Assembly (NCBI GenBank): GCA_008632985.1
Contig: QPGO01000008.1
Coordinates: 1 to 64,000, forward strand
Reading direction: 5' to 3'
From: Psammoneis japonica
Taxonomy: Eukaryota
Length of the DNA stretch: 64,000 bases
The notes under the pieces are model-generated. The model searched no databases and was not told the DNA's origin. It saw only the letters and a program-made list of their open reading frames with translations. The position numbers were made by a program, and so were the translations under genes. Below, in pieces: positions 1-42,571 of the stretch; the first letter of the stretch is position 1; each line of letters begins with the position of its first letter.

Positions 1-1002
1 ACGCTTGTTTTCCTTGAAACAACATGTTTGTTTTCCTTGAAACGACATGTTTGTTTTCCCTGAAACAGCGCGTTTGTTTTTCTTGAAAACACATGTTTGT
101 TTTCCTTGAAAAGACATGTTTGTTTTCCTTGAAACCACATGTTTGTTTTCCCTGAAATGACACGTTTGTTTTCCTTGAAAAGACAAAATTGTTTTCCTTG
201 AAAAGACACGCTTGTTTTCCTTGAAACGACGTGTTTGTTCTCCTTGAAACCACGTGTTTGCTTTCCTTGAAAACACACATTTGTTTTCCTTGAAAAGACA
301 TGTTTGTTTTCCTTGAAACAACATGTTTGTTGAGATGACTTTGAAGCAACATGTTTGTTTTCTTTGAAACGACGCGTTTGTTTTCCTTCAAAAGACACGC
401 TTGTTTTCCCATGACATTTTTTTTGAAATGACGTGTTTGTTTTTCTTGAAACAACATGAGTGTGCCTTGAATTCTGTGCAAGAGCGCACTGACGGAAGCA
501 AACCAACATGATTCCATGTGCAGGAGAACAGCATCTGCGCCCCACAAGAAGCTTGCGCCTGTCCCCAAGTGCAGTTGGATCCATGAGACTGCAATGTGCA
601 GCAATTTGTGGGGTTGACCCTCTCCCAGATGAAGATGTGTGATGCCTCTGGAATGCTTGAGCAGCGCCCACAATTGAGCAACTCCTTGTTTGATGTCTGG
701 CGGTCAAAACCCACCACCGCCAAGAGTTTGTGGGGCACACAAGATGAGTTGTTTTGTGCTTCAGCTGCACCCACATTTGAACATGTTTGTTTTTCTTGAA
801 AAGACATGTTTGTTTTCTCTGAAAAGACATGTTTGTTTTCCTTGAAACGACGCGTTTGTTTTCCTTGAAACGACATGCTTGTTTTCCTTGAAAAGACATG
901 TTTGTTTTCTTTGAAATGACATGTTTGTTTTTCTTTAAACGACATGTTTGTTTTCCTTGAAACCATGTGTTTGTTTTCCTTGAAACAACACGTTTGTTTT
1001 CC
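1..1002. repeat. 23-bp tandem satellite (consensus ~ACATGTTTGTTTTCCTTGAAAAG), interrupted by ~320 bp of non-satellite DNA at ~459-780; runs off the window start
   Basis: Direct tandem units are visible. Minus-strand translations recur every 23 aa (3 x 23 nt). Confidence 0.95.
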
Positions 1003-1667
1003 TCAAATTGGTCAGGAACTTGGGAGGAATGGGCAAAAAAGGCGGCAAAAAGGCAAGTTGACAATCTCAGAAACACGGTGTGTTCGGCTGCTGGGGCGGA
1101 GGCAATGGCCCGTAAGTTGGGTGACCAATGTGTGTGACTCGAGAGTTGCACGCATCTCACAAGAAGATGACGGTGATGCTTTGTCTGTGCAGGCGTTGTC
1201 GCCAAGGAAGAGGGAAAGGAAAAAGAAAAGAAACTCAAGGCGGCAGTCAAGAGGAAAAAGCAAGGCAGGAAAAAGTCAAGCCGTGACAAGAATGAAAAGA
1301 AAGACATCCCGATTGTGCCGACATGGGATCCGCTTGGCCCAGACACTGTCGCTGGCAGCAAACAAAGGAACAAGCAGGCATGCAAGTGGTTCTGTGATCA
1401 CACCCCTGTTTGCAAAAATTGACAAACCAAGGATTGTGTGGCAGTGCAATCATGGATTGGCACATGGCAACAAGGTGGAGGCAGAAATGGCGATGTGGGC
1501 ACTGTGAAAAATGGCACACATGATTCTCAACAAGTTGTCGCGACATTGGCACAGCAAACTTGCAACCAGAGGTTGGAGCGTCATTGTGCGACAACAATTT
1601 TTTGCAACATTTTGACAAATTGTCATCATGCAAATCCACACATTTTTGGCATTTCGTGCACTCTGAT

Positions 1668-1883
1668 GCGTGTGTTGTGCACAGCATCATCACACAGCAT
1701 TTGTCCAACTCTCCCTCTCATCACAGGATGGGTTGTCGCCATGTGGCACATCTGCACAGTGGACTTGCGAATTAGACCATGCACTCCCTCTGTCAGGCAG
1801 GATGGGTTGGTGCCATGTGGCGCATCCGGCCAAGGGAGGAGTGGGTTCGAAGCCCAGCCGCCCACCCCGGATGGGGTTGGAAA
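1668..1883. repeat. Partial unit of a ~412-bp tandem repeat (left flank of Copia-1 insertion)
   Basis: Matches 8916-9130 (tgtgttgtgc.cagcatc.tcacacagcatttgtccaact...ggatggggttggaaa). Confidence 0.9.
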
Positions 1884-2065
1884 CGAACAAATGCCGATGC
1901 AGCCGCGTGGGGCAATGACAGCACCTTAAGCCCAAGAGCAGCAGTGACAAACCAAAGAGAACCCTGTGTCGATTAGATCGCATGAGATTGTGGGAAAGAA
2001 CAAACCACCAGATCGTGCGCGTCAGCCCCGGACCAGGGACTGACCGCTCCACCCAGATTTGCTCG
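1884..2065 (-). repeat. Copia-1 3' LTR (182 bp)
   Basis: Direct repeat of 8533-8714. Imperfect inverted ends cgaacaaat/atttgctcg. Confidence 0.92.
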
Positions 2066-2229
2066 GTCCCCGCGAAACGGCAGTGACAACGCCGATTCGT
2101 CTAAACCTGGAACATCCTCTCATAGAGAGGCAAACACAAAACCCAAATTCAGACCACCAGCAATGCTGGCTTGGGAGGCCGAAAACACGTGGGCGCGAGC
2201 CGCAGGTGTCTGGCCTTGGTGTCGGGGCT

Positions 2230-5200
2230 CTGCCAAAAGATGCAAGAGCAAAGTTTCCAACGCCGCTCTCCCGTCGTCACCTTCGTAAACAAATCCGCCA
2301 AATTCGTGTCGTGTCCTCCTTCCCGACGCGAGTGATGCCAGCCGCAACCGCTTCACGAACCAAATGACAGTTGATGGCATTGTGCTTCTTGTGCAACACA
2401 GATTCCGGAACACTGACGTTCTTCACCACGCCGTGGTTGTTGCAAAATACATTGGCAGGGCCTTCAATCGGCACTCCAAACATACGAAGTTTGTAACGCA
2501 AAGCAACAATCAACTCCTTGCGGGTGCGCATCACAACCAATTCGCTGCCAAACGTCGCCGACTCCACTGTGTTCTGCCGCTTGCTAAACCAAATGATCGG
2601 AGCATTGTTCACGAACATCAAAATCCCGCCATGCGATCTGCGAGTGACAACGTTTCCCGCATGGTTGGCGTCAACAAATGCAGGTGTGTTTGCCGGGTTG
2701 CCACGGGGCTTGGGCATCCGTGGCGGCAACTCCTCCTCAACGTCCCCATAAAACTCCGTCCAGTCCGCAGTGGAATTGAAAACAGATTCGTCAATCACAG
2801 GCATCTTCGGGTCAAAACCAATGCGACCGACATTCAAATGCTTCTTCACACACGCGAACACGTGGTGCAACGCTTCGAGGTGCCCTTTCCTTGGGTTGGC
2901 TTGACACTGAGAGAGAATGGAAACTTCATGCAAGACATCGACACGGCCCAACTCGATCGCCCAACGACAAATGCCAATCAACTGCAAACACCTGTCTGCC
3001 AAATCGGGTCCCAACTCGTCCGTTGCGTCTAATTCCGGCTTGCACTTAGAAGGCAGTGGGTCCCTCACATTGTTCTTCAAGACTGCTCCGTCACCGTCCT
3101 CTTCTAACAGCCCTTCCACCATCTTGATCGCCGACTTGACACACGACTTCGGTGAGCTTGCCCAAATGGTGCGCCCATCTTCGGTCTGAACCTTCTCGAC
3201 GTCGGCTCCAAGGCACAACGATGGCTCTCCTTCACTCCCAGGTTTGACAGCAAATGATTCACCTGTGCTCTCAACAATGGATTTTCCTTGATGAGAAATG
3301 ATTAGAATGTCGTCAACACAAACCAAAAGCATTTCATAACACTCGTGCCCATCGTCGCGAGTTGCCGCACGAATGTGAACGTCGGGATCCGCCTTCATTG
3401 ATTCAAAACCCATGTTCCGTAAAACCGATGCCAATGCGGACCTCCAAGAGCATCCAGAGCTCTTCAAACCGCACAGCGCTCGAGTCACAACTAGAACCTT
3501 GCCTTGGCACTCTCCACATTCCCTGCCACCTTCGAACCAGATCTTCTCGCACACGGGGCATTCAAACACGCGTTCTCCAGGTCGACAGCCGCAATGTCCA
3601 CTCCATTCAATGCTGCCAGCAGGAATCCTAACCGCACGCCATCCCTCGAAACAACACTTGAGCATGTGATCGATGATGGTGTTTCCGCAGTGTGACCTCC
3701 TGCAACAAATCTGGCCTTCCCAGTGAAATCCATCTTCACGTCAAATGCCAAATGGCACCTGATCTCCTGATGACCACGCAAAGTTGCACTCTTGCCTTCC
3801 CGGACGACTTGAGGGGTTTCAGCTTCATGTTCGCGCCACGCTGTCTTGACCTTGTTCATCTCCTTGTCAATTGCGCGAGCCCAACAGTCCGTCCCCGTTT
3901 CCTGGTCAATCTTCAAAGCATCTTCCGTAGACTTGGGTAAACGCGTGCCGAACTTGTGGGTGGTGCGCCAATGTTTCTTCTTGACCTTCGAGATGATGCG
4001 ATTCCGCTTGCGTAAAACATGCGTGACCCACCAAGCAAACACCGGTTCTTCGGTTAACCTGTTCGCTGCAGCATGCTCAGCAAGTTCAATCGGGTTAGAC
4101 TCCTTCAGATCCTTGAGTTTCACCCACGACGAGCTGCCGTCCTTCCATGCGACCAATGGGTTCCATCCTTTCGCAGTTGTCTTCTCATGTTCGTTCCCAT
4201 CAGCTGTCTGAACTGTTCCTTCCTGGATCGGCACAGCTTCGCCGGTCTTTTCGTGATCCTGTGTCTCCCGCAAAATAGAGTGCTGGTTGCCTTCGCTGTC
4301 AACTTGAGCAAACACATTCTCCGCGATCACATTGGCAGTGTGCTCATCTCTGGTGCCGTCTGTGCATTCAATCTCATGTTCGCGGGTGTCAAACAATGGA
4401 TTCTGATGCCGGGTTCCAATCGGTCGCCCATCCTGACCTCGTGCCCACTTGACTGCGACTCCTCGCCGTTCAGCGTTAGTCCCAACATCAAACATGAGTT
4501 CCATTCCGAGACATTGATCAATTGCCTGTTCGTCGTCGTCCTTGGGTCGTTCTCCTGGCAATGACATGTCCCCGCACTCCTCATCGGTTGGTGTCACACC
4601 ACCTTCATGTTCCACGCCGGGGTTGCCGTCGATCGCCAAATCATCCAATGCAAATGCTGGTGCCGCTTCGTCGCCTTGTAAAACGAAATTGGTGTCATCT
4701 AACCATGCCTCCAGTTGTTCGTTAAACTTGTCGACTTTCACACGAATGTCCGGCTGCACCATGTCGGCCTGCGTTGCATGCTTGACCGAAGTCTTCGAAA
4801 CTGTCTTCCCGGATTCCGTGATGATCCAATGACACATGTCCGATCCGACCTTGTGAGACACACCAAGCCATCGTCCAAGCCTCCTCAGGTCATCTGTTGC
4901 ATTCGGCTTGTCGTGTCTGTCCCACCACCAGACCAGATCACAGAAACCGAAGTCCAAATGCTCGCCTGTTTCGGGTGTCTGACCAGCTGCCTCTTCACAC
5001 CCAGTCCGTTTGTCGCGGCCTCTTGCCATGCGAGACACAAGTTCCGATTCACAAACTAGACCAAAATCCCACAATCGTTTCGGTGCCTTCTTCCTCGTCA
5101 TCCGCAGGCGCCAACGCTCAGCCAAGAACCCGATCTCTCTTTCTGCTGTGTGATTCTGATTCTTACGACCTTGTTCCGTTGTCCTGAGTTGGACCCTCAT

Positions 5201-6370
5201 TCGACGTGCGTGTTTCACAAACTCGGCACTTCGTCCTGTGAACTCTCCAGCACCATCCGACATGAGATGCTCCGGCACTCCCACATCGTCTGTAAAGTCA
5301 ACGAGAGACAAACCTGCCTCCGACCTTGCGGTCATTGGCACAACCTTTACGAACTTGCCCTGAGTGTGAACATTGGCACAAGTGTTGCCGAGCAAAGACT
5401 TCACCTTGGATGTTAACGTGTCCACAAACCATGTCCCTTTTAATCTTTTTCGATGCAGGTCCAAGTGATCCACCCTGACTCTCCTTGACATTGGTTGGGT
5501 CGCCGTCCNNNNNNNNNNNNNNNNNNNNNNNNNNNNNNNNNNNNNNNNNNNNNNNNNNNNNNNNNNNNNNNNNNNNNNNNNNNNNNNNNNNNNNNNNNNN
5601 NNNNNNNNNNNNNNNNNNNNNNNNNNNNNNNNNNNNNNNNNNNNNNNNNNNNNNNNNNNNNNNNNNNNNNNNNNNNNNNNNNNNNNNNNNNNNNNNNNNN
5701 NNNNNNNNNNNNNNNNNNNNNNGACTGGAGACAATCGAGTGAGTTCAGCTTCAACCTCGCCCCATTGGACTGCTTGAGACTCAGCCCTGTCGCTCTTCAT
5801 TTCTGAAATCTGTTCCTGTCTCATGCCAGATGTCATTGAACGGATGGCACGCATCTCAGATTGCTCCCTTGCATGCTGTGGCAAACCCATGTCGACTTCC
5901 ATTGGACTCCATGCGTCTCCTGTTGGCAGTGTCACTGGCAAGTTCTTCTCCTCCCAATCCGTCGGAACACGAGACTTGAAAGATGCAATTGTCCCCGTGG
6001 AATTGAAAGGTGTGAAAGCTTCATCAGCTTTGACTCCAAACCCATTTCGAGTGTCGCAAGGGTTGTCGTGTGCGGGCACATCACACGCTCGCAACTGATT
6101 GGGGTTCAACAATGAATGCTGCATGTCAGCTCCAAACCATGGCATTTGGTCTCCAACCAGCAAGCACTCGCGAGTCGTTTCCGGATCCATCCATGCTGTG
6201 CAACAACGCGCCACAGGAATCTGTTTAACCGGCTCACACGAATCTAGAAACGGGTGCACTTCACAGACTTCGTTCGTCAATTCCACAAGTTTCCAGTTGG
6301 CGCCAGCACAACAAGCATCCACATGAGTGTCACATTCGTTCCTTGCCATGAAGCCGGGTGTCGTTAAGTT
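2230..6370 (-). pseudogene. pol: Copia-1 pol (protease, integrase with chromodomain-like C-terminus, reverse transcriptase, RNase H); frameshifts near 3555 and 2310
   Basis: ORFs 3491..6550 and 2277..3665 carry Copia motifs with Tyr replaced by Cys or His. Confidence 0.92.
5509..5722. other. Assembly gap (214 N)
   Basis: Run of N. Confidence 1.
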
Positions 6371-6559
6371 CGTCATCGCGGTGGCAGTCGTTGACCTCAT
6401 CACACGTTTCGAAGTCACAGCAACGCGCCTTTTCGTCACCTTCTCTTGCAAATGAAACATTGGGTGGGGTCCAGTTAACAACATGATGAGCAACATGAGT
6501 GCAAATGACATGTGCACCAAATGCACCAACGCTCCCGTAGTTGAAACCACCCCGATCAG

Positions 6560-8084
6560 TCAAACATGACCTTGACAGGCCCCTCGACCGAAAGCGCGCC
6601 CATTCCTGCCACCATGATCACGGTCAGCTCCGCGACCGCGGCCACCGTTTTCACCTTGCGCTTGACCTTGCTGCCCTTGACCTTGACGGTCTTGAACCTG
6701 AGCTTCGGCTGCTTGCCTGTTGCCTCCGTCGCATCCGCCTCTTCCTGTGGGGTTTCCTCGACCACCGCGTCCGTGCATCCTTTCACGAGCTTGAAAAACA
6801 CAATTGAGACCTCCGTTAAAGCGCAATCTGTCCCATTCCTGGTCGGCAAATGTCCTCGTAGGATCCGATGCATCGAATCCGTCAATCACAGTTGTGTGAT
6901 CACCGCCCCTTCCTTGATGTCCTCCGCGTCCTCCACCGTGGCCAAATCTGCCGCCACGCCCACAACCGCCACGATGGAAACCTCGGCCACCACCGCCACC
7001 TTGGCTGATCTGAGAAATCTTGCGCTTCGCATGACGCCGGGCTTCCAACTGAGCACCTGCATGCAAACGAGAGACTTCGGATGAGAAATGAGCACACGCC
7101 CCCGCGAAGTCACGAGGGTGCTGGTTGCCAACAACGGCCGTAGCCGCCACAAGACGGGCATCCTCCGATTTGATGCCCTTCTGCAACATTTCAACCTTCT
7201 GCCGAGCAGACATGCTTTCATCCGGAACCTCATCCAAAGTGGCAAAGGCACTGGTGAGTTTCTCCGTGAATTTCTCAAACGCAAGTGCACCTTCCTTTTT
7301 TGTAGAATGACGTTTCGATGTTGGCCTTGGCCAAATGAACTCACTTGCTCAATTCGCCTTCGCCATTGCAATGGTTGACCCAGGCCCAGAATGCTTCACG
7401 TCCATTCTCTGTTGCGTCGCATGGTTCAATCCAAGCCCAACCAGCTGCATCAATCAAATGCTCTTTTAACATGCGATGCACGTGACGATTGTCCACATCA
7501 AACGCGTCTCCGGCAAGCGGCAACTGATGCATGCGCTCCTCCTGATTGTCCGCGAACTCCGCCGGTGCAGGCATCCTCCTCACGACACATTTCAACGGCT
7601 CCTCAAGCACACCAAGCTTCTGCGCCAACAAGTTCAAGAAAGCGTCTTCACACACGTCAAAATCTTCCGCTTTGAATTTGGTGAGGCTGTCAACCGTCGC
7701 AGTGGATTCCGTAAACTCCTTTTCAATGCGCCTGCCGTCCCCAGCCGCCGCCACAGCTGCAATGTTAAAATTCGCCGCAACCAGTGGCTGGCTCCGTTTC
7801 GTTAAATCTCTCAACCACCAAACCAACGCCTGCAAGTTCTTGATCTGCATCGTCCCCAGCGTCACGCGTCCATCGGCTGCTGCACGACGAGCCGCCCTTT
7901 GGGCTAGATCCTCAACATCATGGTCCGTTTCCACAACAGCAATGTTCTCAAGAGCAGCAAACCCTTCATAGAAAACAAGCCTCGCCCCAGCGTGTTGGTC
8001 AACAACACCACAAACTTGCAACACCGCATCTGCGTCAGCCGCCGCGGCCAAAGCCGCAAGTGCCACTGCTGGTGCCGCTGCCAT
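6560..8084 (-). pseudogene. gag: Copia-1 gag (RG/GG-rich C-terminal region); in-frame TGA at 7341 and frameshift near 7295
   Basis: ORFs 7341..8147 and 6560..7237 lie upstream of PR. GR-rich nucleocapsid-like tail; NGREAFWAWVNHCNG resembles a copia gag motif. Confidence 0.8.
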
Positions 8085-8519
8085 CCTGTGATGAGAGAAA
8101 CAGAGGCAACAACCCATGCAATGGGTCGCAATTTGGTGTGAGTGCACATGGCACAGGAGGCTGCACCGACCGGTGCCGTGATGATGGGTTCACGCAGCCA
8201 ACCGACTTCGGGGTGATCAATCCCGTGTCGTTTCCATCGTGAGCACACGCTCGGGCACACTGCCCAATGCCGCAGTCGTTCCACACCCGTTGACAACATG
8301 GAGATGGTGACTGTTTTGCGAGCATTTTCCGTTGCAAGCTGTTTCCTTTGGTCGTCATACGCGACACAGAGCACACGCTGCACGCGACAACCCCCTTTTG
8401 ATGCCACGTGTGCAAATCAGCACATTTTCTACAGCTGCTCGTTCCATGCACACAATCACAACAATCAACCGTTTGCAACGAGTTGCTTCCTCATCCGTTT
8501 CGTTCAGCTTTTCATCAAT

Positions 8520-8532
8520 GGCTCTGACAAAG
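8520..8532 (-). promoter_or_regulatory. Putative tRNA-iMet primer-binding site of Copia-1 (CTTTGTCAGAGCC; cf. canonical TGGTATCAGAGCC)
   Basis: Directly follows the 5' LTR on the minus strand. TCAGAGCC core is intact; TA appears as TG. Confidence 0.6.
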
Positions 8533-8714
8533 CGAACAAATGCCGATGCAGCCGCGTGGGGCAATGACAGTGCCTTGAGCCTGAGAGCAGCAGTGACAAA
8601 CCAAAGAGAACCCCACGTCGATTAGATCGCATGAGATTGTGGGAAAGAACAAACCACCAGATCGTGCGCATCAGCCCCGGACCAGGGACTGACCGCTCCA
8701 CCCAGATTTGCTCG
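8533..8714 (-). repeat. Copia-1 5' LTR (182 bp)
   Basis: Direct repeat of 1884-2065. Confidence 0.92.
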
Positions 8715-9368
8715 GAAAGGGGCAGGCCGAGAAAGAAAAGGAGGCTTGGATTTGAGGCCAATTCGAGCCAGCGACCTCAGAAAGTGCAAAGACTCACAAC
8801 CAGTCAGAACGCTGCACACTGTCCTGGCAAGTGCAGGAGGTTCTCAACAACCCAAGAGGCAAAGAAGTTGCCACTCGGCTGGCTGTTGAGTCCCTTCTCC
8901 GCGCACACATTTGGGCGTGTGTTGTGCGCAGCATCGTCACACAGCATTTGTCCAACTCTCCCTCTCGTCGCAGGATGGGTTGTCACCATGTGGCGCATCT
9001 GCACGGAGGACTCACGAATTTGACCATGCACTCCCCATGTTGGGCAGGATGGGCCAGCGCCATGTGGCGCATCCAGCCAAGGGAGGAGCGGGCTTGAAGC
9101 CCAGCCGCCCACCCCGGATGGGGTTGGAAAGGGGTGGGCTGAGAAAAAAAAGGAGGCTTGGATTTGAGGCCGATTCAAGCCAGCGACCTCAGGAAGCACA
9201 AAGACTCGCAACCACTCAGAACACTGCACACTGTCCTGGCGAGTGCAGGGGTTCTCAACAACCCAAGAGGCAAAGAAGTTGCCACTCAGCCAGCTGTTGA
9301 GCCCCTTCTCCGCACACACATTCAGGCATGTGTTGTGCACAGCATCGTCACACAGCATTTGTCCAACT
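8715..9368. repeat. ~412-bp tandem repeat, ~1.6 units
   Basis: gaaagggg...ggaggcttggatttgaggcc... starts at 8715 and again at 9127. Confidence 0.9.
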
Positions 9369-9369
9369 G

Positions 9370-12316
9370 AACATGTCCTTTCAAGGAAAACAAACATGTT
9401 TTCCTTGAAAAGACATGTTTGTTTTCCTTGAAACCACATGTTTGTTTTCCTTGAAACCACATGTTTGTTTTCCTTGAAATGACACGTTTGTTTTCCTTGA
9501 AAAGACATGTTTGTTTTCTTTGAAACAACATGTTTGTTTTTCTTGAAAAGACATGTTTGTTTTCCTTGAAAAGACATGTTTGTTTTCCTTGAAACCACAT
9601 GTTTGTTTTCCCTGAAACAACACTTTTGTTTTCCTTGAAACGACATGTTTGTTTTCCTTGAAAAGACATGTTTGTTTTCCTTGAAAAGACATGCTTGTTT
9701 TCCATGAAACGACATGTTTGCTTTCTTTGAAACCACGTGTTTGTTTTTCTTGAAAACACATGTTTGTTTTCCTTGAAACGACATGTTTGTTTTCCTTGAA
9801 ATGACATGTTTGCTTTCCTTGAAAAGACACCTTTGTTTTCCTTGAAAAGACATGATTGTTTTCCTTGAAACCACGTGTTTGTTTTCCTTGAAAAGACATG
9901 TTTGTTTTCCTTGAAATGACACATTTGTTTTCCATGAAACAACATGTTTGTTTTCCTTGAAACAACACGTTTGTTTTCCTTGAAAACACATGCTTGTTTT
10001 CCTTAAAATGACATGTTTGTTTTCCTTGAAAAAACATGTTTGTTTTCTTTGAAACAACACGTTTGTTTTCCATGAAACAACATGTTTGTTTTCCTTGAAA
10101 CCATGTGTTTGTTTTCCTTGAAAACACATGTTTGTTTTCCTTGAAACGACATGTTTGTTTTCCTTGAAATGACGTGTTTGTTTTCATTGAAAAGACATGT
10201 TTGTTTTCCTTGAAAAGACACGTTTGCGGCATGTTTGTTTTCCTTGAAAAGACATGTTTGTTTTCAACACATGTTTGTTTTCCTTGAAACCACATGTTTG
10301 TTTTCCTTGAAACAACACGTTTGTTTTCCTTGAAAAGACACGCTTGTTTTCCTTGAAAAGACATGTTTGTTTTCCTTAAAAAGACATGCTTGTTTTCCAT
10401 GAAACGCCATGTTTGTTTTCCTTGAAACCAAATGTTTGTTTTCCCTGAAAACACATGTTTGTTTTCCTTGAAAAGACACCTTTGTTTTCTCTGAAAAGAC
10501 ATGCTTGTTTTCCGTGAAACGACATGTTTGTTTTCCTTGAAACCACATGTTTGTTTTCCTTGAAACCACGTGTTTGTTTTCCGTGAAACGACATGTTTGT
10601 TTTCCTTGAAATCACATGTTTATTTTCCTTGAAAAAACACACTTGTTTTCCTTGAAATGACACGTTTGTTTTCTCTGAAAAGACATGTTTGTTTTCCTTG
10701 AAATGATGTGTTTGTTTTCCTTGAAAAGACATGTTTGTTTTCCTTGAAAAGACATGTTTGTTTTCCTTGAAATGACAGGTTTGTTTTCCTTGAAACTGCA
10801 TGTTTGTTTTTCTTGAAATGACACCTTGGTTTTCTCTGAAAAGATGTGTTTGTTTTCCTTGAAACGACACGTTTGTTTTTCTTGAAACGACACATTTGTT
10901 TTCCTTGAAAAGATGTGTTTGTTTTCTTTGAAACAACATGTTTGTCTTTAAACGACATGTTTGTTTTCCTTGAAAAGACATGTTTGTTTTCTTTGAAAAG
11001 ACACGCTTGTTTTTCTTGAAACGACATGTTTGTTTTCCTTGAAAAGACATGTTTGTTTTCTCTGAAACCACATGTTTGTTTTCCCTGAAAATGCACATTT
11101 GTTTTCCTTGAAAAGACATGTTTGTTTTCCTTGAAACGACACATTTGTTTTCCTTGAAAAGACACATTTGTTTTCCTTGAAAAGACATGTTTCTTTTCTT
11201 TGAAAAGACATGCTTGTTTTCCATGAAACAACATGTTTGCTTTCCTTGAAACCACATGTTTGCTTTCCTTGAAACAACATGTTTGTTTTCCTTGAAACGA
11301 CACGCTTGTTTTCCTTGAAAAGACATGATTTGTTTCCTTAAAAAAACATGTTTGTTTTCCTTGAAATGTTACATTTTTTTTCCTTGAAAAGACATGTTTG
11401 TTTTCTTTGAAACGACATGTTTGTTGAGGTGACTTTGAAACAACATGTCTGTTTTCTTTGAAACAAGGTGTTTGTTTTCTTTGAAAAGACACGCTTGTTT
11501 TCCTTGAAATGACATGTTTTTTTCCCCTGAAATGACATGTTTGTTTTCCTTGAAACCACATGTTTGTTTTCCTTGAAACCACATGTTTGTTTTCCTTGAA
11601 ATGACACGTTTGTTTTCCTTGAAAAGACATGTTTGTTTTCTTTGAAACAACATGTTTGTCATTCTTGAAAAGACATGTTTGTTTTCCTTGAAAAGACATG
11701 TTTGTTTTCCTTGAAACCACATGTTTGTTTTCCCTGAAACGACACTTTTGTTTTCCTTGAAACGACATGTTTGTTTTCCTTGAAAAGACATGTTTGTTTT
11801 CCTTGAAAAGACATGCTTGTTTTCCATGAAACGACATGTTTGCTTTCTTTGAAACCACGTGTTTGTTTTCCTTGAAAACACATGTTTGTTTTCCTTGAAA
11901 CGACATGTTTGTTTTCCTTGAAACGACATGTTTGTTTTCCTTGAAAAGACATGTTTGTTTTCCTTGAAAAGCCATTTTTTCCCTTGAAGCAACATGTTTG
12001 TTTTCCTTGAAAAGACATGTTTGTTTTCAAGACATGTTTGTTTTCCTTGAAACGACACGTTTGTTTTCCTTGAAAAGACATGTTTGTTTTCCTTGAAATG
12101 ATGTGTTTGTTTTCCTTGAAAAGACATGTTTGTTTTCTTTGAAAAGACATGCTTGTTTTCTTTGAAACCACATGTTTGTTTTCCTTGAAACCACATGTTT
12201 GTTTTCCTTGAAACAACGTGTTTGTTTTCCTTGAAAAGACATGTTTGTTTTTCTTGAAATGACACGTTTGTTTTCTCTGAAAAGACATGTTTGTTTTCCT
12301 TGAAACGACATGTTTG
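9370..12316. repeat. 23-bp tandem satellite array (~2.9 kb) with higher-order duplications and one inverted head unit
   Basis: Same unit as 1-1002. Confidence 0.97.
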
Positions 12317-13423
12317 CCAAGGTTTTTTGCAAGAATCTGAAAGAGTTGTTGTCACAATCAAACCCAACCTCTGGCTCACACAAGTGGCTGAAAACCTGGA
12401 GTTCATCAAACCTGGCATGGAGTTTGAGAGCACTTGGATGAAGACAAAGCCACAACAGGTGACACCACACATTCATGCCCAAAGCAGTGCTGGGGGCTTG
12501 TGTGTTGTTCATTCCTGCAACAACTGCCATCATTGTGGCACATCTCTTTGTCATCATTTTCATCATCAACGGTGTTGGTGCTCAGTGCTTCATCAACTTT
12601 TTCATGTTGTCATCTGCACTGGCTTCTTCTTCCTTGAGCTTGGCATGGGGTGCACCACCCTCAATCACTGAAGGTGCCCTTGCACTCCTCTGTGCTCTTG
12701 GGCATTCCTGTGGCTTGTCTTTGGGGGCATCGGCCTTGCAGAGTTGGCCAGTTTGCAGGGCAAATGAAGAGCCTTGGGGAGCTTCCATCTGTGTGTGTTG
12801 TCGGGTGTTGCGGCTCTTCTTTTCAATGCATTCATCCAAGAAACATGGCACACATGCACATTGCAATGCTTGCTTGTCAGAAGCACCAGGTGGAAGACAA
12901 CAACCACTCCAGCCCAGTGGCAAGAGTTGAGGAAGGCAAGCGAGGGGAGGCACCTCTCCCTTCGAAGTGTTTGTGCTCAGAAAGTTTGGCTTGTGTGCTG
13001 GCCAGTGGTTGCTGGCAGGCACAGCTCTTCTTTCTGCAACTCTGCTCACTGAATCAGGGAGAATGGAGGGCCAACACTTGCTCTTGCGCAGCTAATCTCA
13101 GCATGTTTCTCGATGCTTTGGACTCATCGGGGACAGCAGCAGACAGTTTCCGTTCGTTCGTCGCATCGCGGCGGCTCGCTTTTGTCCTTGCTTTGTGTCT
13201 ATTTAGTTTTTGGAACAATGTCAATTCAATTTTTATTATCAACAATTTTGTACCACAACGTCTTTATACTTCCTTTAACTTTGTATACAAATGTTGTTCA
13301 ATTTTTGTTGGAGTCTCCAGTATCAAATGTGTTGTGAAATTCCTGTAGAAAAGACAAATTGAAAACACTCACGATTCACTCCATCCAATCGCGATATCTG
13401 CAGAGAAACACAAAAATTTGCCA

Positions 13424-16289
13424 ATGATGCCCATGCCGCACCACCCCTGGTCTTTGAACGGGCTCTTGACGGTATTATTGTTGGTTCTGTTGCTGTGTCA
13501 TTATGGTAAGTATTAATGTATAAGAGTCTGATCGAAATACCTATTGATTGGTGCATTCAGATCACTTCTTTGTTTGTTTTTAACATGTCATTCTTCTTCA
13601 CATAATTCTCTTCACAACAACACGTAAAGCACACGCACAACCCCCCAACGATCTGTGCGCCAATGCTCAATCTCTAACCCCCAACGGACCTATTCAGTCG
13701 GGCACGACTATTGGAGCCACTTCTGCTGATCTTGGAGGCAACGTGGGTGTTTGGTACATCGCAACGGGAACCGGGCGGCCGTTCTCCGTGTCGACGTGTT
13801 CCTCCGCTACCGACTTTGAGACTCAGCTTCGGCTTTTTACTGCATGCGACGATGCCTTTCCGTTGCAAGAAGGTACAGACAGCACCTGCGGCGATACGAA
13901 CACCAACAACAATGTTGCTCCCGTCTTGACGTGGGAGACACAACCTGACGTGTCGTACCTCATTTTTGTGGGTGGAACGACGCCGGGCGCCGCTGGGACT
14001 GGTAATTTTGGGATTTCACTCATCGAGTATCAAACTCCGCCCAATGACGCTTGTGTAGATGCGGAACCATTAGTCTTGAATGGTCCCATACAAGCGGGAT
14101 ACACGATTAATGCGACGCAAGACACCTTTGATGGCATCAATGGAGCCGATGTGACGCACCGCGGAGTGTGGTACAGTGTAGTGGGCAATGGAAACGCGAT
14201 TGAAGTATCCACGTGTTCAGCTCAAACAGACTTTCAAACGTTTCTCTATGTACGGGAAAGTTGTGAAGTCACTTCGAATGCTCTTTTTGAATCTGTTTCC
14301 GACGATACGTGTTCCGATACAGCACGAGCCGTCAAGGCAAAGTGGGACACTAGGAATGGAAAAATCTATTATATTTACGTTACATCCTTGTATGCAGGCA
14401 TCACGGGTCAATTTGGTATTTCCGCCATGGACTTTGATGCTCCCGCCAATGATATGTGTCGTGCTTCCGAAGTGATTTCCCTCAATGGACCCGTGGTTGT
14501 GAGTGATACCATGAATGCAACGCGAGACGTTTTTGATAATGAAAATGACAAGGGTATCTTCTTTCGCGGAGTATGGTTCATCATGACGGGCCGTGTTGGA
14601 AATTTCACAGCTACTACGTGCTTTGACACGACGGATTTCATTTCACAAATTTACGTCAAGAGCGATGATAACTGTTTGCCAACCAGGGATGCAATTGCGG
14701 CCAGCACTCCAGACTCAAGCTGTAGCAATCCTCGTGCTGCAACGGTAAAGTGGGCATCCGACGCAAATTCAATATTTTATCTTGTAGTGGGCGGTGTGGA
14801 TCCAACGGCCACTGGGAATTTTGCACTTCGCATCACGGACGACACTGGTACAAGCGTTCCTTTGCCACCAGCTGTTGGGGTGCCAGCACCCACACCTCTG
14901 GTAAATCCGGATCCCCTTCCAGAAGGACCGGCGGCTCGTTTGTGCACCGATGCCACGACCTTGTCAATCAACGCTGGAACCGCCACTGGATCGACAGAAG
15001 GGGCATTAGTCAATGTCTTCTTGACCACGGGAGGTTTTCAAGTCCAACGCGCCGGTGTATGGCATTTAGTAGTGGGGAACGGACGAACCATGACGGTGTC
15101 GACTTGCTCCGACGCTACCAGTTTTGAAACACAATTGTGGCTCCGGGACGACTGCAGTCCAGCAATCAATTCTCTTGAAATCGGCGAACAAGATGCTGAC
15201 TGCAACAACCCCAATGGGGCCGTTCTCACGTGGGACTCGATACCTAACAAATTGTACTATATTTTTATTGGTGGAACTGCGACTGCCACGATTGGTAATT
15301 TCGGCGTATCCCTGGTGGATGTACAACCACCAGTAAACGACTTGTGTTTTGACGGTGCGCCGCTCCTTGTGAATGGTCCCATTACCTTTGGCACCTCCAT
15401 CCATGCAACGCCGGATTCGCTTCGGACTCAAGGAGGATCGGGTTTGACTCGACGCGGTAGTTGGTTCATTGTGGTGGGGAACGGTGAGCCACTTACTGCC
15501 TCCACCTGCTTTCCGCGAACCAACTTTGTGACACAAATGCATGTATATTCGTCTTGTGACTCGAGACGTGAGAACCCACTCGCCGTGAGCGTTTCGGATT
15601 CAGCCTGTGTTCATGGTGAAGCAGCACAAGCAGTCTGGAACTCGGTAAAGGATACACTCTATTACATCTTTGTTGGAGGCACCAGCAGTTCCGTTTCAAG
15701 TACGGGTGACTTCTCCATTAGAGTAACGGATAGCCTGGCAGAGTCCGTGACACCGCCTCCAACCATGGCTCCAACCGTCACACCAGTCGTGACAAGTTCG
15801 CCAACCCTTTCGCCGTCCAGCGCGCCAACACGTTCGCCAACCCTTTTGCCGTCCAGCGCGCCAACACGTTTGCCGTCTGTTGAGCCTTCTGCGCCCCCCA
15901 CTACCCTTTCGCCGTCATTGACGCCGACTGATTTGCCTTCTGAGTTGCCAAGCTTGTCTCCAAGCATGTCGGAACAATCCGCTGCTCCGAGTTTGACAAT
16001 GCCATCGTCTATGCCCAGTGTTGTTACGGCGACCGGTAAACCGTCTCAATCGCTATCGCCGACCGGTGAGACTACTTCTTCCCAACTCCCTGTTGCACCT
16101 TCAACGTCGCCTCCAACAGCCAGTCAGACCTCAAGTCAAACCAATGAACCAACGGGAACGGAATTCATATCATCGGTTCCAACGATCATGGACACTGCAT
16201 TGCCGACGGATGATTCTGCTGCTACTGTTGCACGCTACTTTGTTGGGGGGGTTGGAGGTGCTACACTGCTGTTCTTGATGCTAATTTAA
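13424..16289 (+). CDS. Secreted/cell-surface protein: signal peptide, five ~130-aa repeats (PPNDxC...GVWY...STC...T.F.T), Pro/Ser/Thr-rich stalk, hydrophobic C-terminus (GPI/TM-like); intron 13506-13629
   Basis: Exon 1 MMPMPHHPWSLNGLLTVLLLVLLLCHY, then GTAAG...AAG spliced in frame into ORF 13743..16289. Confidence 0.85.
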
Positions 16290-16299
16290 ATCAGCATAT

Positions 16300-19200
16300 A
16301 TTTCATCCGCGGCTGTGAGACATTGAAGCCATCCGGATACAACTTGGAGACTCCATACACGAATGCGTAATGCAGTCTTTTCCAGCATTCTACATCGTCC
16401 AACTTAATGTATAATAAAAGAAGTTTCGCCCCCACCCCTACCTGTCTACTAGCCATAGACATGATGATGTGCCACCGGCAGATCATCACTTCGGCGATAC
16501 ATTGGCAAAGGGCGTCCGATGGCATTTATGAAAAACGCATATAGTATGGCGAGTTGATTGTGCTTGGGTCCGTGAGCGAACCGACAGATCGTTGCCAAGT
16601 TGCTTGCGTGTATGTATCCAGTGCGCAAACAGTTCCTCTTGGCCTTCACGGTTGGTGCAGCTCTGTGCCTCATGAACCGAATGGCAAACGTGCTATGATC
16701 ATCCGTACTGCAATCTCGTTTGGAAAGCAATGGCACAAAACATGGAGCCGCGCTCGAAGTAAGTGGGTGAGCGTCACCAAATTAGCGAATACAGTTGTGA
16801 AGAATGCCGGAGAGTACCTCCTTCACTGTCGTGTCTGTGGAGAGAGACTCAGAGGTATACTGGCAAGAATAAGCGACTAGTCAGACAATCGAAACTCTCG
16901 CGTTCGTGCGCAAACCTGCAGGAAATTGTCTTTTGTCATTTCGGTTCCAGCGTCACGATAGCAACTGCCTCTGTCTCGAGTTTGTAGTCAGCACCACTGC
17001 GAGTGAACAAGGAATGTTATCATGAGACGAAAACATATGCCTAGTGACGAAACCTCTGGAACGCTTCTCAAATGATACTTAGAGGTATCGACTTGCGTCA
17101 AAGTATAAAGGACTCTGAAGCCAAAACGACAGAGCTTTGAAGCTGTATGTTGCTCTTGCCTTCAATGTCGAGCACGTTCCAGCACTCGTTCCGAGTAGAA
17201 TAGCACACCATGATGCGACGAGAACATTTCTATAGATTGCTTCGCGGACGACTGAGGGAAGCACAGAGAGTCTCGTAACCCTCTCCCTTGGCATGCAATC
17301 AAGCAACGGCATTGGTACAAGCATTCGAGTGTCACCTAGGCCCGCGTTTAGTGTCAGTGGATCATCCAAGGTTGCCTCACAATGGAAAATTGAAAGGGGG
17401 GTCTGGATTTGTTTTTCAGCTTCAAACGCCAACCAATTCGGATGAAGACTGACGAGCCATTCCCTGACACATTCCAGATCCGACATCATGGAAGCAGTGT
17501 CGTCAAGCTGAAGAAACCTAGCGAATTAGCCCAACTTATCCTTGAGGACACAGCAGTGCCCAATCTACAACACGAAGTCTGTACGCTATGACCTCCGATA
17601 AAGTTCAGCTCTGCACGAAATATCGTAACCGAGTGCGATCCATCAAGACTCCAACAAGATCTTCTTCCTTTGCTGACAAGTATAGAAAGCGAAACAATCT
17701 ATTTGGCGGTCTCCGAGTGCCGCCATTTGACAGGTTGTCGAGAAGGGTAGTTTCCAGATCCTCCTGCTGATTTCTCACACGAGACATCTTGTGGCTTAGA
17801 TGTGCGATATGCCGGTAGCCTTTCGGTGTCGCGTATTTCTTTTGCAGGTTCACGGCAATAGATTTTGTAACTTGTTTTCAACTCGTTGATCTTTCTCTGG
17901 TGTCGGCGACGAAGCTCAATAGATCCTTTTCAGTCTTGACAACGAATGAACGTGTGATCTTATCAAGTGTGTTGGCTGGCGAGGGCCGAGAAGCGACAAC
18001 TCTTCTTGGGCTTGAGCCTTTGAGCATACTTGTTTTGTCTGTATTCATCCAGCACCCAGGCATCCCGAACTTCTAGCTTCTCACTGTCTGCCACGTTGGC
18101 TGGCGGAGAAAGCACAAAAAATGCAGTGGATCTCGAACTCTGCCACACCCATTTACACCTTATTGTACAGGAAAGCTTACCATGCGTGTAGGGCCCTACA
18201 CCTCAAATAGTTTCTCACTTTCGTTGGTGTCGAACGGTGAATTTTCCCAAGCGCCAATCTGTGGCCAATGAAATGTTTGCAGTATAGTGCGGCCAGATGT
18301 CGTCTTCCAAGGGCATCAGTAGCTTTGAGGCTGCCTAATTTCTGTTGCTCGTCGAAGATGTGGCATCGCAATTGCGCATTCCAATTCTTGGACACTTTCA
18401 CCTTGAACTGAATCTGTACACATCCGTGAGGGATCGACTCCTCAAGGATGAGCACGCTTTCTAAACCTGGCAAGCATCCTTGAGAAACTGCTTTGTTACA
18501 GCATTGCGTCGCATCGTTCGTCTACTTAAAGTTAAGCGCAGAACGACGAAGCGAAAAACGCAGCTCCGACTCCTCCGGGTTGACTGTCAGTTGGATACTC
18601 GGTTCCATCAAAACGTGACAAGATCTTGGTGAGACCCGTTGAACCGCGAAGAGGTCTCCGGAAGCTTTCTTTACCACAAAGAATGCCAATCTCTGCTGCT
18701 TTCGTCGGCAAATCGAGGGTGTCTATCTTGAGAAGCTGCAACTTGTCCGCATGGAGAGTTCTATCGTCGTCACCATGCTGTAGCTCGAACACTAGAGCGA
18801 CTCGTCGGTTGCGTCTTGCCTACGTTCATAATAGAAGCGTCCGTCGCATGGATGCATCACACAGCAATGTCGAAACCCTTTCGAAATCACTTCAAAGTTG
18901 ATGAGAACGTGCGTTTATAGGACGAATCACCAATCACCGAGCCTGGGAGAAGCCCGGGTGGCGCGCCGTCCAAAGACGAGTACTACTTCTACAACACCAT
19001 TCAGTAGATTCAAGGAGTAGTCCGACGAAACAGCTTCAACGCAACCTGTCGGATAGCCGTCGTCGTACAGTACACCCTGCCAAGCCAAATAGGAAGGTGA
19101 GTTTTCAATCACAAGGCGGAGACACGCTGACAGGAACACGCTATTATCTCTCGATACTGAAAAGATCTCTTCTACGGGTATCCTGCTCGAAACAACTGGC

Positions 19201-20200
19201 TGACAGGATGGCTGATTCAGTTCTTCCATGCCAACATCTAAACGAGCGACACGATAATCAGCTTGTTCTTAGCAGGGAGACGCCAAAGCATACATCCTCA
19301 ACCTGAAGAATCATTGACTTGGCCGTCCATGCAGAGAGTTGCCGAGGTGACAGCATAGCAAGCCGAAAGAGGTTTTCGTGCAAGGAAGTCACTGCATCCG
19401 GTTCAAAGAATGCCAACTTATTGCTGGTTAGTGCGGCGGTTCCTGACGTATTTGCGCCTGGATGTTGGGGCCAGAAACATCGACAATGCCCAATGTTATT
19501 GGCACCAGAACCAGGTGTGTCGTTAGCCACGGTTGCCTTGTTCACCAGTGTTCTCGTCGTTTCCAATCAGCAACCCCCACCAACAGGGAAGCGTGCCGAA
19601 GAGCACCATTCTACGAAATTTGAATCGCATTCCGTGCGCGTGCCCGTCCTGTGCAATTTCATTGCTCTCGACAACTTTTTCTGCAAGATTGAATCCTTGC
19701 GGCGCAATGACAATATCTTGATTGGTTCCTTTCCTGGGATTCTCTAGCTCGCGATTTCTTCTTCTGCCATTACTTCTCGGGTTGGCTCGTACCTTCGGGA
19801 AGTCCGATGCTCCAGTGATTCAAAATGGCATTCCATGGCCAGGGCCCCGACTGTTGGCAGTTCGGGTATACGAGGCGCAATAGCTGGAAGTTGCTGTCCG
19901 CCCGGTTCATTCTTCCTGCTGAGTCTACCCCGCTCATTCAACTTTTCTCTGTCAAGAAGCGAAACGCTAAATGACAGGTTTTGTCGCCGGTACAGCACAT
20001 GCCTACCGGTACAGACTTCGGCATTCTCATTTCTCTTTCAGCAGACCCGCGAAACGCCTATCCATATTGCCGATCCAGATCGTGCGTGAATGACGTGGTG
20101 AGCCAAAGAAGCTGCTCTGACCTTGCTCTACTTGAAGCTTATTTATCTCATCTCCAACCGCAAGCTGCCAACTCCACAATTCTTTCGTGTGAAAAGGGTA
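16300..20200 (-). pseudogene. Degraded large gene, DUF3638-like (P-loop/helicase-like) protein; outer limits uncertain
   Basis: Fragment HPNWLAFEAEKQIQ...LNAGLGDTRMLVPM...RVTRLSVL resembles the DUF3638 P.WL.FE.E...QLNMGEGKT.VI.P motif. Many stops and frameshifts. Confidence 0.45.
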
Positions 20201-20462
20201 AACAAGAATGACGTGGCGACTCCCACATAATGATTGTCAGTCACGAATGAAGAATTTGGTACAGCCCTTCTGCCACCAATTCTAATGAGGAATGAGCAAT
20301 GAGCCCGACCCGCGAACCGCGTGTGTGAATGCGATAGTTATTGCGTGCTTGGTAAAATGGCGGGTACCGTTGGCTGTTCAGCTCTCTCGCATTCATCTGT
20401 TCTGTTGTAGAAAACTGCGACATTCGAGACGTACCATAATCCTTTGCAAAAGGCTCCCTGCA

Positions 20463-23400: not shown

Positions 23401-24317
23401 CGGTTGCTTTCGTATTTGTTCGCATGTTGAGGTTGATTGGAGTCGCAGCCCTCTATGTCGGGCGTCTTGACACAAACTTCCTCGCACCGGGTGTTGGCAA
23501 GATTGGCAGCTTGGAGCTGGATGCTTATCCGTCTCTCTTTTTGACTGACGTGATTGTTCAAGAGGCCCACAGGCATCCATACATTGAACTGCTAGGCACA
23601 ATGTACTTGATGAAGCTACGCCATGGCGAGAACTTCGGAAACAGAGCAGGCTCTTGTTGGAGACTACTTTTTGTCACTGCGCTGTTCCCCTGGCTCCAGC
23701 GTTACCGTATTCTTCTGCAGACTGGTGATGACGTCGATGATGATCCCACCAACTTTGATTTGTACTCGAGGGCGGGTACTCATGATCGTGAAGACGACCT
23801 AGAATCACTCGCCGTTGTCAGGTTGAAAACGGATAGTGACGGCAACACGAAGCAAGAGACTGTATTCGTGCCGCCTCCGTCTCCATTGAGGTATCGCCAG
23901 ACCAGCCTCATTCCCCTCATGAGTTCCCGCAGTCTAAGAACTCGATCTTCACGAATGTCTAGCTTTGGGGGTCGACATTATGAGACCAAGCGAACAGCAC
24001 CGTCCAGCGATGAGAGATCATCTGATCGTGGTGGTGGTAGCGACTCTATCCTTTCCCCATATGTAGGACTCGGGCTAGATACCATCAATGAGAGTGAGGC
24101 TGAAACGAAATCGAAACATCGCAGGAGAGGATTACCGAAAATGACCGAGATGGACGATCATGATTGTCTCCCATCGCATCCGCAGGCTTCACACAAGGAA
24201 AGGACGCAGGGCGGCCAGGACTATAGCGACCTACACTTCAACAAGGCAGAAGATGCTGGATGTGAATCGTTGGCGCTTCCAGCGCTCCATAGATCTGGGA
24301 ATCGCCGAAAACCATGA
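20463..24317 (+). CDS. Multi-exon polytopic membrane protein with STRA6/RBP-receptor-like C-terminal region
   Basis: MALQFDRPIGAAADVKELEYISALHQT start, several GT-AG introns and hydrophobic helices. RLDTNFLAPGVG..ELDAYP..EAHRHPY resembles the STRA6 C-terminus. Apparent indels near 20880 and 22140. Confidence 0.7.
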
Positions 24318-24613
24318 GACATTGGACGTGACTTTTTTCGAGAGCAGACGCATTTGGGGTTGCTCGCTCTACTATTATACCGTAAATTTTTTGTAACAAT
24401 TTTTGTACACGACTATCTCACTCACCACGGGCTTGCAATCTCTTCACAATTCATCGTTCAAGAGCATCAAAACCCAAACTGCGCCTCTCTTTTGGGTGGG
24501 GCTGTTTAAAGTAGTAGAAAGCGAATCGCATGCACGGAGTAAAAGACAAAGCTGCGCAGTTCAACCCCTCTGATTGTCTCAGGTTTCATTTCAATCCGAC
24601 ACTTTTCTCTAGG

Positions 24614-28864: not shown

Positions 28865-29076
28865 GCCGTACTCGCATGGTGCTATTGCGGCTGAAAAGTG
28901 ATGACAAACCCTCTTTAGACGTACGGAGCTTTTTCTCTAGGAGAGAGTGGAGCACAAGTAATGTCGCCGGTGGGACTTCACGAAATGACGAGGTGGGACT
29001 ACGACTGCACTGTTTGGCTCTACCTTTTTGTTTAACCAGTATTTTACAATCGACTTATAACTTTGTTCTTCTTTTC

Positions 29077-35991: not shown

Positions 35992-36014
35992 AGTGCAAAA
36001 GCAGTGCATTTGCC

Positions 36015-39650: not shown

Positions 39651-39659
39651 ATTGCCACT

Positions 39660-42566: not shown

Positions 42567-42571
42567 GGTGG

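Follow-up and report, generated by a model that had tools for sequence, protein, structure and literature searches.

Probable TpA hypermutation of two repeat blocks in a diatom-like nuclear genome

What process could remove most of the TpA dinucleotides from long parts of a chromosome, and stop close to the ordinary genes beside them? This question is raised by a stretch of 64,000 nucleotides (contig QPGO01000008.1, positions 1 to 64,000 of the forward strand; this whole stretch is called the window in the following), in which two blocks, block A (1-13092) and block B (31980-59243), are depleted of TpA and each carry a degraded Ty1/copia retrotransposon, named Copia-1 and Copia-2, respectively. 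The answer that we consider very probable is that a TpA hypermutation acted at the level of nuclear DNA, after integration of the elements, and that its targets were two repeat blocks lying silenced in the genome of a diatom-like organism. The T:A pairs of the step 5'-TpA-3' were converted to C:G on either strand (TA to TG or CA), and the change halts within a few hundred bases of the neighbouring genes. In the Copia elements Tyr was thereby replaced by Cys or His, Ile by Thr or Val and Thr by Ala; TAA and TAG stops were removed, and a slower decay of CpG to TpG or CpA runs alongside in the same blocks.

Extent and limits of the TpA depletion

A 1-kb scan of the window yielded observed/expected (o/e) ratios for TpA of 0.00-0.18 from base 1 to around 13.1 kb and of 0.00-0.16 from around 32 to 59 kb, versus 0.40-0.77 in the gene-bearing stretches, and the ratios for TpG and CpA inside the depleted blocks were 1.3-2.2. 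Counted directly, TpA occurred 61 times in positions 1-13090 (4.7 per kb) and 97 times in 31801-59000 (3.6 per kb), where 519 and 1078 occurrences, respectively, are expected at the rate of the gene regions (Poisson P = 4e-144 for the deficit in the first block); the gene regions themselves contained 758 (13091-31800; 40.5 per kb) and 182 (59001-64000; 36.4 per kb). Within the two blocks as delimited above, TpA is about 10-fold down, i.e. some 90% of it is gone, and CpA and TpG are 1.36-fold higher than in the genes, at a G+C content of 48.2% in the blocks versus 47.6% in the genes. The initial annotation of this DNA had noted that TA is rare at first and common again from ~13.1 kb, in agreement with these counts; the span that it gave, 1-13090, captured a true depletion and was too narrow, because the second and larger block at 31980-59243 had been missed.

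Divided by part, the TpA ratio in block A, which continues past the left end of the window, was 0.015 in positions 1-1667 (2 TpA), 0.133 in the Copia-1 region (1668-9368) and 0.0 in a spacer at its right end (12317-13092). The 96 TpA of the 27-kb block B were distributed over the part left of Copia-2 (31980-42569; o/e 0.043, 30 TpA), Copia-2 itself (42570-49749; 0.085, 35 TpA) and the part to its right (49750-59243; 0.045, 31 TpA). The gene regions gave a ratio of 0.57-0.58, and the depletion is restricted to regions of selfish or foreign DNA with ordinary flanks. The ratios of TG and CA were 1.4-2.1 in the parts of the blocks, compared to 1.15-1.22 in the genes. The final TpA of block A is found at 11370 and TpA is dense from 13093/13200; the edges of block B are at 31781/31979 on the left and, on the right, at 58569 followed by 59244, and the edges of both blocks are a few hundred bases away from normal genes. 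The effect is regional and not solely based on repeat homology, as the spacer at 12317-13092 is single-copy at the k-mer level and contains no TpA in 776 bp (CpG o/e 0.14). The window contains one run of N only (5509-5722), which has no bearing on the TpA pattern. Because TAA and TAG are nearly absent from the blocks, stop-to-stop open reading frames (ORFs) of 150-1000 amino acids are present in all six frames of both, and these are not genes; gene finders would over-call in such blocks.

Direction, specificity and timing of the changes

The direction of change at the protein level was derived from 85 full-length homologues of Copia-1 (at least 1250 amino acids) that were placed onto the window by tblastn; codons at which at least 30 homologues were aligned and at least 80% agreed were considered conserved, which resulted in 510 such codons. 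The 25 conserved Tyr columns of Copia-1 contain Tyr 3 times, Cys (TGY, where Y is a pyrimidine) 14 times, His (CAY) 6 times and Phe and Val once each, whereas of the 485 conserved columns with a residue other than Tyr, 431 still hold it (Fisher P = 6e-17). Next most altered were Ile, retained at 9 of 15 columns and otherwise changed to Thr and Val, and Thr, retained at 14 of 22 (5 changed to Ala), and these losses represent the other changes that are predicted by TA to CA or TG. A reversion of TG or CA to TA was by itself sufficient to regain the ancestral residue in 35 of the 76 changed conserved codons, and about a dozen of the remaining changed codons are located within a frameshift overlap (3544-3584). 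The ORF at 3491-6559 on the minus strand contains no Tyr in 950 non-X residues, where 120 homologues have a median Tyr content of 3.46%, and its Cys and His contents are elevated with respect to these homologues. The initial annotation had set this Tyr-free ORF against the eIF2-beta of the window (8 Tyr in 252 amino acids), and the altered Copia motifs that it had listed (CVDD, ALCGLK, NACL, ITCSS, AINCH, GHQEI, KHW, LAEH, FGTRLP, HLAFDVK and GWNPLV) were all recovered in the translations.

At the nucleotide level, codon alignments of 64 related metagenomic loci were used, with columns covered by at least 20 loci and showing at least 85% agreement; locus L035 was excluded from the majority, since it is itself mutated. 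Only 3 of the 25 conserved TA dinucleotides were kept, the others having become TG (15), CA (6) or GC (1), while the remaining fifteen dinucleotides were retained at 68-100%. Among the 1319 conserved single-nucleotide columns covered by the window there were 35 changes of A to G, 39 of T to C, 12 of G to A and 5 of C to T, and 27 transversions; an A preceded by T is now G at 23 of 30 sites versus 12 of 340 for any other A, and a T followed by A had changed to C at 34 of 52 sites versus 5 of 293 for any other T. The substitution spectrum is dominated by TpA-specific transitions, and the enrichment of TA to TG/CA that the initial annotation had proposed to look for in an alignment of transposable elements is indeed present. 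The occurrence of both products at the conserved TA columns means that either strand is hit, and no clustering of TG and CA outcomes in strand-specific runs was detected in a patch test, the two being interspersed (z between -1.3 and +1.8). The TpA poverty is not a property of the family, since 64 of the 65 related metagenomic Copia loci display a TpA o/e of 0.56-0.92, against 0.15 for Copia-1 and 0.09 for Copia-2.

The two long terminal repeats (LTRs) of a retrotransposon are identical at insertion. The 203-bp LTRs of Copia-2 (42570-42772 and 49548-49749) are at present 91.6% identical, and differ by 5 TG/CA doubles, 2 TA/TG, 2 CG/CA, 1 other transition and 1 transversion; the change came after integration, because the LTRs of one element differ at TpA-type sites. 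Five pairs of repeats within the window (993 aligned bp) differ by 18 TG/CA doubles, 4 TA/TG, 29 CG/TG or CG/CA, 13 other transitions and 10 transversions, in which the TA/TG differences form the only unambiguous class.

Contigs of one public DNA run from the same organism were compared to the window over positions 1-16000. They contain many diverged copies of Copia-1, with a summed depth of 630-1830 as compared to 57-135 for unique genes (a figure that does not represent copy number), and in all 435 transitions and 67 transversions separate these paralogous contigs from the window. The 40 differing places with the best support were broken down by class and comprised 7 CA/TG double mismatches (14 places), TA in place of a TG or CA of the window (6 places), CG in place of a TG or CA of the window (8 places), a CG of the window that is changed elsewhere (2 places) and other differences (10 places). 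Because the paralogous contigs differ from the window at these sites, the copies must have mutated independently, some of them keeping TA. Direction, specificity, the comparison with relatives and the differences between LTRs and between paralogs are all in agreement with the regional, repeat-associated change of TpA to TpG or CpA on either strand that had been proposed for this DNA. As a separate observation, contigs of a second run from the same sample match the short LTR pieces 1884-1961 and 8836-8958 and retain TA at sites that read TG or CA in the window; they extend into TA-containing sequence that is unlike the window and may represent less mutated copies elsewhere in the genome.

The signature was also encountered in other environmental elements. 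Locus L035 (positions 1-1590), one of the 65 metagenomic loci, with only 67% DNA identity to Copia-1 and a TpA o/e of 0.26, has kept 2 of 11 conserved TA columns and has TG in 3 and CA in 6. The homologue P0257, one of 120 shorter ones, contains 0.29% Tyr, and of 17 conserved Tyr columns it has His in 10, Cys in 4, Tyr in 2 and Phe in 1. P0027 is partly affected: Tyr is still found in 15 of 24 Tyr columns, with Cys in 4, His in 3 and Phe in 2. These environmental copies are only 61-67% identical to the elements of the window. As they share the signature, the process is not confined to the elements of the window, and they hint at its breadth.

The TpA that remains in the blocks is biased with respect to its flanking bases (chi-square 126, P = 4e-28): RTAY (R being a purine) occurs 9 times in the blocks versus 316 times in the genes, RTAR or YTAY 68 versus 487 times and YTAR 80 versus 138 times. 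Expressed as the tetramer frequency in the blocks divided by that in the genes, the values range from 0 (ATAT), 0.015 (ATAC/GTAT) and 0.035 (GTAC) via 0.13 (CTAG) and 0.25 (CTAA/TTAG) to 0.82 for TTAA, of which 43 sites are found across both blocks (e.g. at 935, 4054, 32247 and 57814). Hardly any RTAY is left, YTAR persists to a large extent and TTAA has escaped the loss. An additive model, fitted by hand to the log ratios, gives values of ~2.8 for A, 1.7 for G, 1.0 for C and 0.1 for T as the base that precedes TA, or for the complement of the base that follows it; in the tetramers that result from the change, the contributions of the two sides are confounded by CpG decay and by the composition of the satellite. 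Furthermore, TA after CG is retained more (0.16) than TA after AG or GG (0.01-0.03).

The blocks have in addition lost CpG, with an o/e of 0.14-0.69 in most parts (0.28-0.69 by part of block B, locally 0.03-0.3) and of 0.89 in Copia-1, and CG/TG and CG/CA differences between copies are frequent. This loss is most simply explained by deamination of 5-methylcytosine (5mC) in methylated repeats; a passage in the literature on Phaeodactylum gives about 6% of that genome as methylated (PMC6604790). In Copia-1 some 88% of the conserved TpA has been lost and CpG is nearly intact (o/e 0.13 and 0.89, respectively), which implies that the loss of TpA is much faster than the decay of CpG.

The proposed process, its precedents and its alternatives

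The initial annotation knew of no description of a process of this kind and has been overtaken in this by a 2026 preprint (Mettrop et al., bioRxiv 10.64898/2026.01.13.699255), whose passages on the subject report a hypermutation of A/T to G/C on TpA only in the integrated DNA of nucleocytoplasmic large DNA viruses (NCLDV) and virophages of Bigelowiella natans. According to these passages, 231 of the 302 nuclear mutations in mutation-accumulation lines fell in the giant-virus and virophage regions, where nearly all were A>G or T>C and all were on TpA, at ~6e-7 per site per generation and in some lines only; low-TpA coding sequences were enriched for reverse transcriptase and DDE domains, and the authors propose an ADAT2-like adenine deaminase (10.64898/2026.01.13.699255). 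Judged from its sequence, the footprint described here resembles that of B. natans in kind and would extend such a process to a second, distant lineage. Common to both are A/T transitions that are confined to TpA and yield TpG and CpA on either strand, the restriction to regions of foreign or selfish DNA with the rest of the genome ordinary, and a long-term footprint that consists of TpA depletion and a gain of CpA + TpG. The two cases differ in that B. natans is a chlorarachniophyte and hence rhizarian, whereas the host here is diatom-like (stramenopile); in that the changes here struck LTR retrotransposons, a region flanked by satellite and a single-copy spacer, and not giant-virus and virophage inserts; and in that the depletion is near-saturated (o/e 0.0-0.13), versus a Rho of 0.45 in the NCLDV region of B. 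natans. The flanking rule (RTAY erased, TTAA spared) and the decay of CpG are found here and neither is mentioned for B. natans in the passages of the preprint that concern it. Moreover, rates of de novo mutation were measured for B. natans in mutation-accumulation lines, whereas the footprint here is read from the sequence.

The terms 'diatom' and 'CpG' each have 0 occurrences in a term search of the text of the preprint (10.64898/2026.01.13.699255), and in our literature searches no account of such a hypermutation in a diatom came up. No relevant passage was retrieved by term searches from Maumus et al. 2009 (PMC2806351) and Filloramo et al. 2021 (PMC8147415), and no passage on TpA hypermutation from Krasovec et al. 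2019 (PMC6604790) and Veluchamy et al. 2015 (PMC4504042).

We infer that the process is enzymatic, that it is aimed at silenced or foreign chromatin and that it serves defence as a functional counterpart of repeat-induced point mutation (RIP); the mutation pattern apparently serves to wreck invading DNA. The leading candidate for the chemistry, to which we assign a likelihood just short of even, is that a deaminase like TadA or ADAT2 converts adenine in DNA to hypoxanthine. The natural tRNA substrate of these deaminases has a U directly 5' of the edited A. The initial annotation had described the change as A to G at TpA; the TpA-specific transition in this description is borne out, and its choice of A as the attacked base is not, as T to C at TpA gives the same result. 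Because TpA is its own complement, attack on A and attack on T are indistinguishable in the sequence.

An attack on the T of TpA is accordingly the alternative that survives best, although we consider it unlikely; it could for instance proceed by a JBP/TET-like oxidation or hypermodification of thymine to 5-hydroxymethyluracil (5hmU) or 5-formyluracil that pairs with G. The counts at Tyr columns, TA columns and nucleotides all fit T to C at TpA equally well, and the flanking preference can be read as a ranking of the base that precedes the T (A>G>C>>T). It is known, furthermore, that 5-formyluracil mispairs with G and that the 5hmU of dinoflagellates favours TpA. However, no TET/JBP domain was present in the ORFs of the window that were scanned, and the authors of the preprint favour, as a proposal, the deamination of adenine (10.64898/2026.01.13.699255).

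We regard as very improbable that the edits preceded integration, i.e. that an ADAR-like enzyme acted on retrotransposon RNA, or a deaminase on cDNA, and that the edited copy was then inserted. Both clearly identified elements of the blocks are retrotransposons, and ADAR is stated in the preprint to favour a U 5' of the edited A (10.64898/2026.01.13.699255). Against this, the LTRs of Copia-2, identical at integration, differ mainly at TpA-type sites, a single element was hit on both strands (14 Cys, 6 His), the single-copy spacer and some 20 kb without similarity to retroelements are equally depleted, and the depleted blocks end at chromosomal positions and not at the ends of elements. An effect of the ADAR/APOBEC type, with LTRs that share their edits and retroelements as sole targets, was likewise rejected. 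Such editing resembles what we see in its deaminase-type transitions that are clustered in repeats or retroelements, and differs in that it acts on RNA or pre-integration cDNA, whereas here the LTRs diverged after integration and non-retroelement sequence was hit. APOBEC, moreover, changes C to T or G to A, and not A to G.

No more credible is the suggestion of the initial annotation that error-prone repair synthesis of the Pol-eta type at WA motifs (W being A or T; WA to WG) occurred in heterochromatin. It would result in A-to-G changes with a 5' T, as observed, but WA includes ApA, and mutagenesis of both dinucleotides was not found: the frequency ratio of ApA between blocks and genes is 1.12, versus 0.10 for TpA. 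An A without a preceding T was changed at just 12 of the 340 conserved sites given above, and the preprint places all GC-biased mutations of the viral regions of B. natans on TpA (10.64898/2026.01.13.699255).

The probability is smaller still for a sequencing or assembly artefact, in which a modified base at TpA is misread in repeats or an error arises in polishing. The library type of the available runs is not on record and they may derive from the sample of the assembly itself, but a read-derived contig of 1864 bp (depth 56.9) reproduces positions 12288-14151 with 0 differences, and the same site is TG in one paralog and CA in another, which a systematic miscall would not yield. The elements are in addition frameshifted and CpG-decayed, and the signature is also present in unrelated environmental assemblies (L035, P0257). 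Finally, an intrinsic avoidance of or selection against TpA, or GC-biased gene conversion among repeats, has next to no probability, for even though UpA and TpA avoidance occurs in many genomes and the genes of the window are already at a TpA o/e of 0.57-0.58, in the blocks conserved Tyr, Ile and Thr were destroyed and frames broken, related elements have normal TpA, G+C is equal, the changes are limited to TpA and do not extend to all A/T, and the single-copy spacer is affected.

Several points weigh against TpA hypermutation as we propose it. The TG/CA doubles in the repeat pairs are only partly diagnostic, as an ancestral CpG can also yield them, and the DNA run from which the paralogous contigs were built may be the assembly's own sample and in that case is not fully independent. 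The satellite of block A (3.5 kb; TpA o/e 0.02 at 9397-12316) provides no independent evidence of depletion, because its array is homogenised and the 23-bp unit itself is without TA. The ratio of outcomes differs between elements, with 15 Cys to 6 His in Copia-1 versus 4 Cys to 10 His in P0257 (Fisher P = 0.018), a difference that may hint at a strand bias tied to the direction of replication or transcription. Of the 90 block and 44 gene-region ORFs that were scanned, none carried a deaminase, Y-family polymerase or TET/JBP domain, in line with the statement of the initial annotation that no responsible enzyme is visible in the window; the 90 block ORFs were picked by hand from 108 of at least 100 amino acids in the depleted blocks outside the Copia bodies. 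The words 'ongoing', 'heterochromatin-targeted' and 'defence', lastly, stand for what we infer from the footprint.

Among the established systems, RIP of Neurospora and other fungi shares with the TpA hypermutation the dinucleotide context of transitions at repeats and transposons, the destroyed frames and the largely intact single-copy genes nearby. In RIP, however, C is changed to T (CpA to TpA), by which TpA is created and G+C lowered, whereas here TpA is destroyed (10-fold down, with CpA and TpG 1.36-fold up) and G+C is unchanged, and RIP was rejected as a candidate. The discussion of the preprint likewise describes RIP as a C-to-T change that creates TpA (10.64898/2026.01.13.699255). The decay of CpG via 5mC takes place in the same blocks (CpG o/e 0.14-0.89) and also ends in TpG and CpA, but it cannot remove TpA and is slower in Copia-1.

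TpA hypermutation of nuclear DNA is a newly recognised way in which eukaryotes disable invading DNA, and a chemical mirror of RIP, that so far rests on one preprint and one alga. The footprint in a diatom-like genome indicates that the process is confined neither to one lineage nor to viral inserts; it moves the hunt for the enzyme into a group with good genetics, and the rule that RTAY is erased and TTAA spared is a constraint that any candidate enzyme must reproduce. Taking all of this together, one could tentatively imagine, and we consider this doubtful, that TpA-directed editing of DNA is an old and widespread arm of defence of the protists of the stramenopile, alveolate and rhizarian (SAR) group, and perhaps beyond, that in diatoms it forms the main permanent means to inactivate retrotransposons and silenced domains during clonal growth, and that it depends on a single enzyme with an RTAY rule that spares TTAA. 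Such an enzyme may be able to act on CpG as well as on TpA, both being self-complementary pyrimidine-purine steps, which would explain why both converge on TpG and CpA in the same blocks.

Structure of the depleted blocks and the gene regions

Within the window, block A starts with two arrays of a 23-bp satellite (5-409 and 781-1003; Tandem Repeats Finder, period 23), each followed by a TA-free spacer (5-1003 as a whole), and contains 127 further copies of the unit at 9397-12316 (Tandem Repeats Finder). The summed contig depth of the satellite is 1e4-9e4 versus 57-135 for unique genes (~100-1000x). As the satellite occurs on both sides of Copia-1, the element was seemingly inserted into the array. 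The gag-pol remnant of Copia-1 (2187-8060, minus strand, delimited by tblastn of the 85 homologues) contains frameshifts near 3550 and 2310 and the N gap at 5509-5722, and residues 1-1418 of the homologue P0003 are collinear with it over 6481..2233 at 53-71% identity (tblastn). Its homologues carry PF07727 and are up to 71% identical, and the named relatives are from Fragilaria. The body is flanked by LTR-like repeats on the minus strand that were recognised by repeat matches: one on the 3' side (1668-2066), of which positions 1881-2066 match 8530-8715 at 94.6% and 1668-1883 match 8915-9130 at 89.4%, the differences being mostly TG/CA doubles and CG/TG or CG/CA; and one on the 5' side (8530-9368) that is tandemly duplicated, with 8693-8957 matching 9105-9368 at 88.3%.

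Block B contains minisatellites and, from 42570 to 49749 on the plus strand, Copia-2, which was delimited by its LTRs and its Pfam matches to gag_pre-integrs (34.5 bits, cut-off 28.4), SH3_retrovirus (30.5 bits) and RVT_2 (20.7 bits, cut-off 31.6). Outside the Copia bodies, none of the 90 ORFs that were scanned in the two depleted blocks had a Pfam match above its curated cut-off, including those of the some 20 kb of block B beside Copia-2. The match of Copia-1 to RVT_2 (23.4 bits) is under the cut-off of 31.6 as well, as expected for copies that have decayed; the domain order (Gag, protease, integrase, reverse transcriptase, RNase H), the reverse transcriptase of the RVT_2 type and the LTRs identify both mutated elements as Ty1/copia. 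Because decayed elements score below the Pfam cut-offs, the transposon content of such genomes is under-annotated.

The normal gene region to the right of block B (59244-64000; TpA o/e 0.57) contains a kinase-like ORF, an ORF like RNA 3'-phosphate cyclase and the single-exon gene for eIF2-beta (59484-60239, minus strand), identified by protein matches. The named best matches of the latter are from the diatoms Nitzschia, Amphora, Entomoneis and Skeletonema (69-77%), with 83% for the best match overall; an identical protein was not present in the collection searched. Judged by these matches, the DNA of the window looks like that of a diatom or a close relative; the source is not Bigelowiella, because the proteins of that organism should match far better than the best hit of 83%.

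The gene island between the blocks (13093-31979; TpA o/e 0.58) contains a DUF1415 gene and a Peptidase_M64-like gene. An ORF at 13584-16286 (plus strand, 901 amino acids) has several internal repeats of a module of ~130 amino acids that contains Cys, followed by a tail rich in Pro, Ser and Thr; no Pfam family was matched, and the product resembles a secreted or cell-surface protein. The ORFs at 25611-26771 and 30745-31410, both on the minus strand, share Cys-rich modules of the form C-x-R-C-x-x-C-x-x-x-G-C-I, and the former has in addition a linker of PT repeats. The match to DUF1415 (27591-28861, plus strand) is split over the overlapping frames 27591-28358 and 28250-28861, which suggests a short intron or a frameshift.

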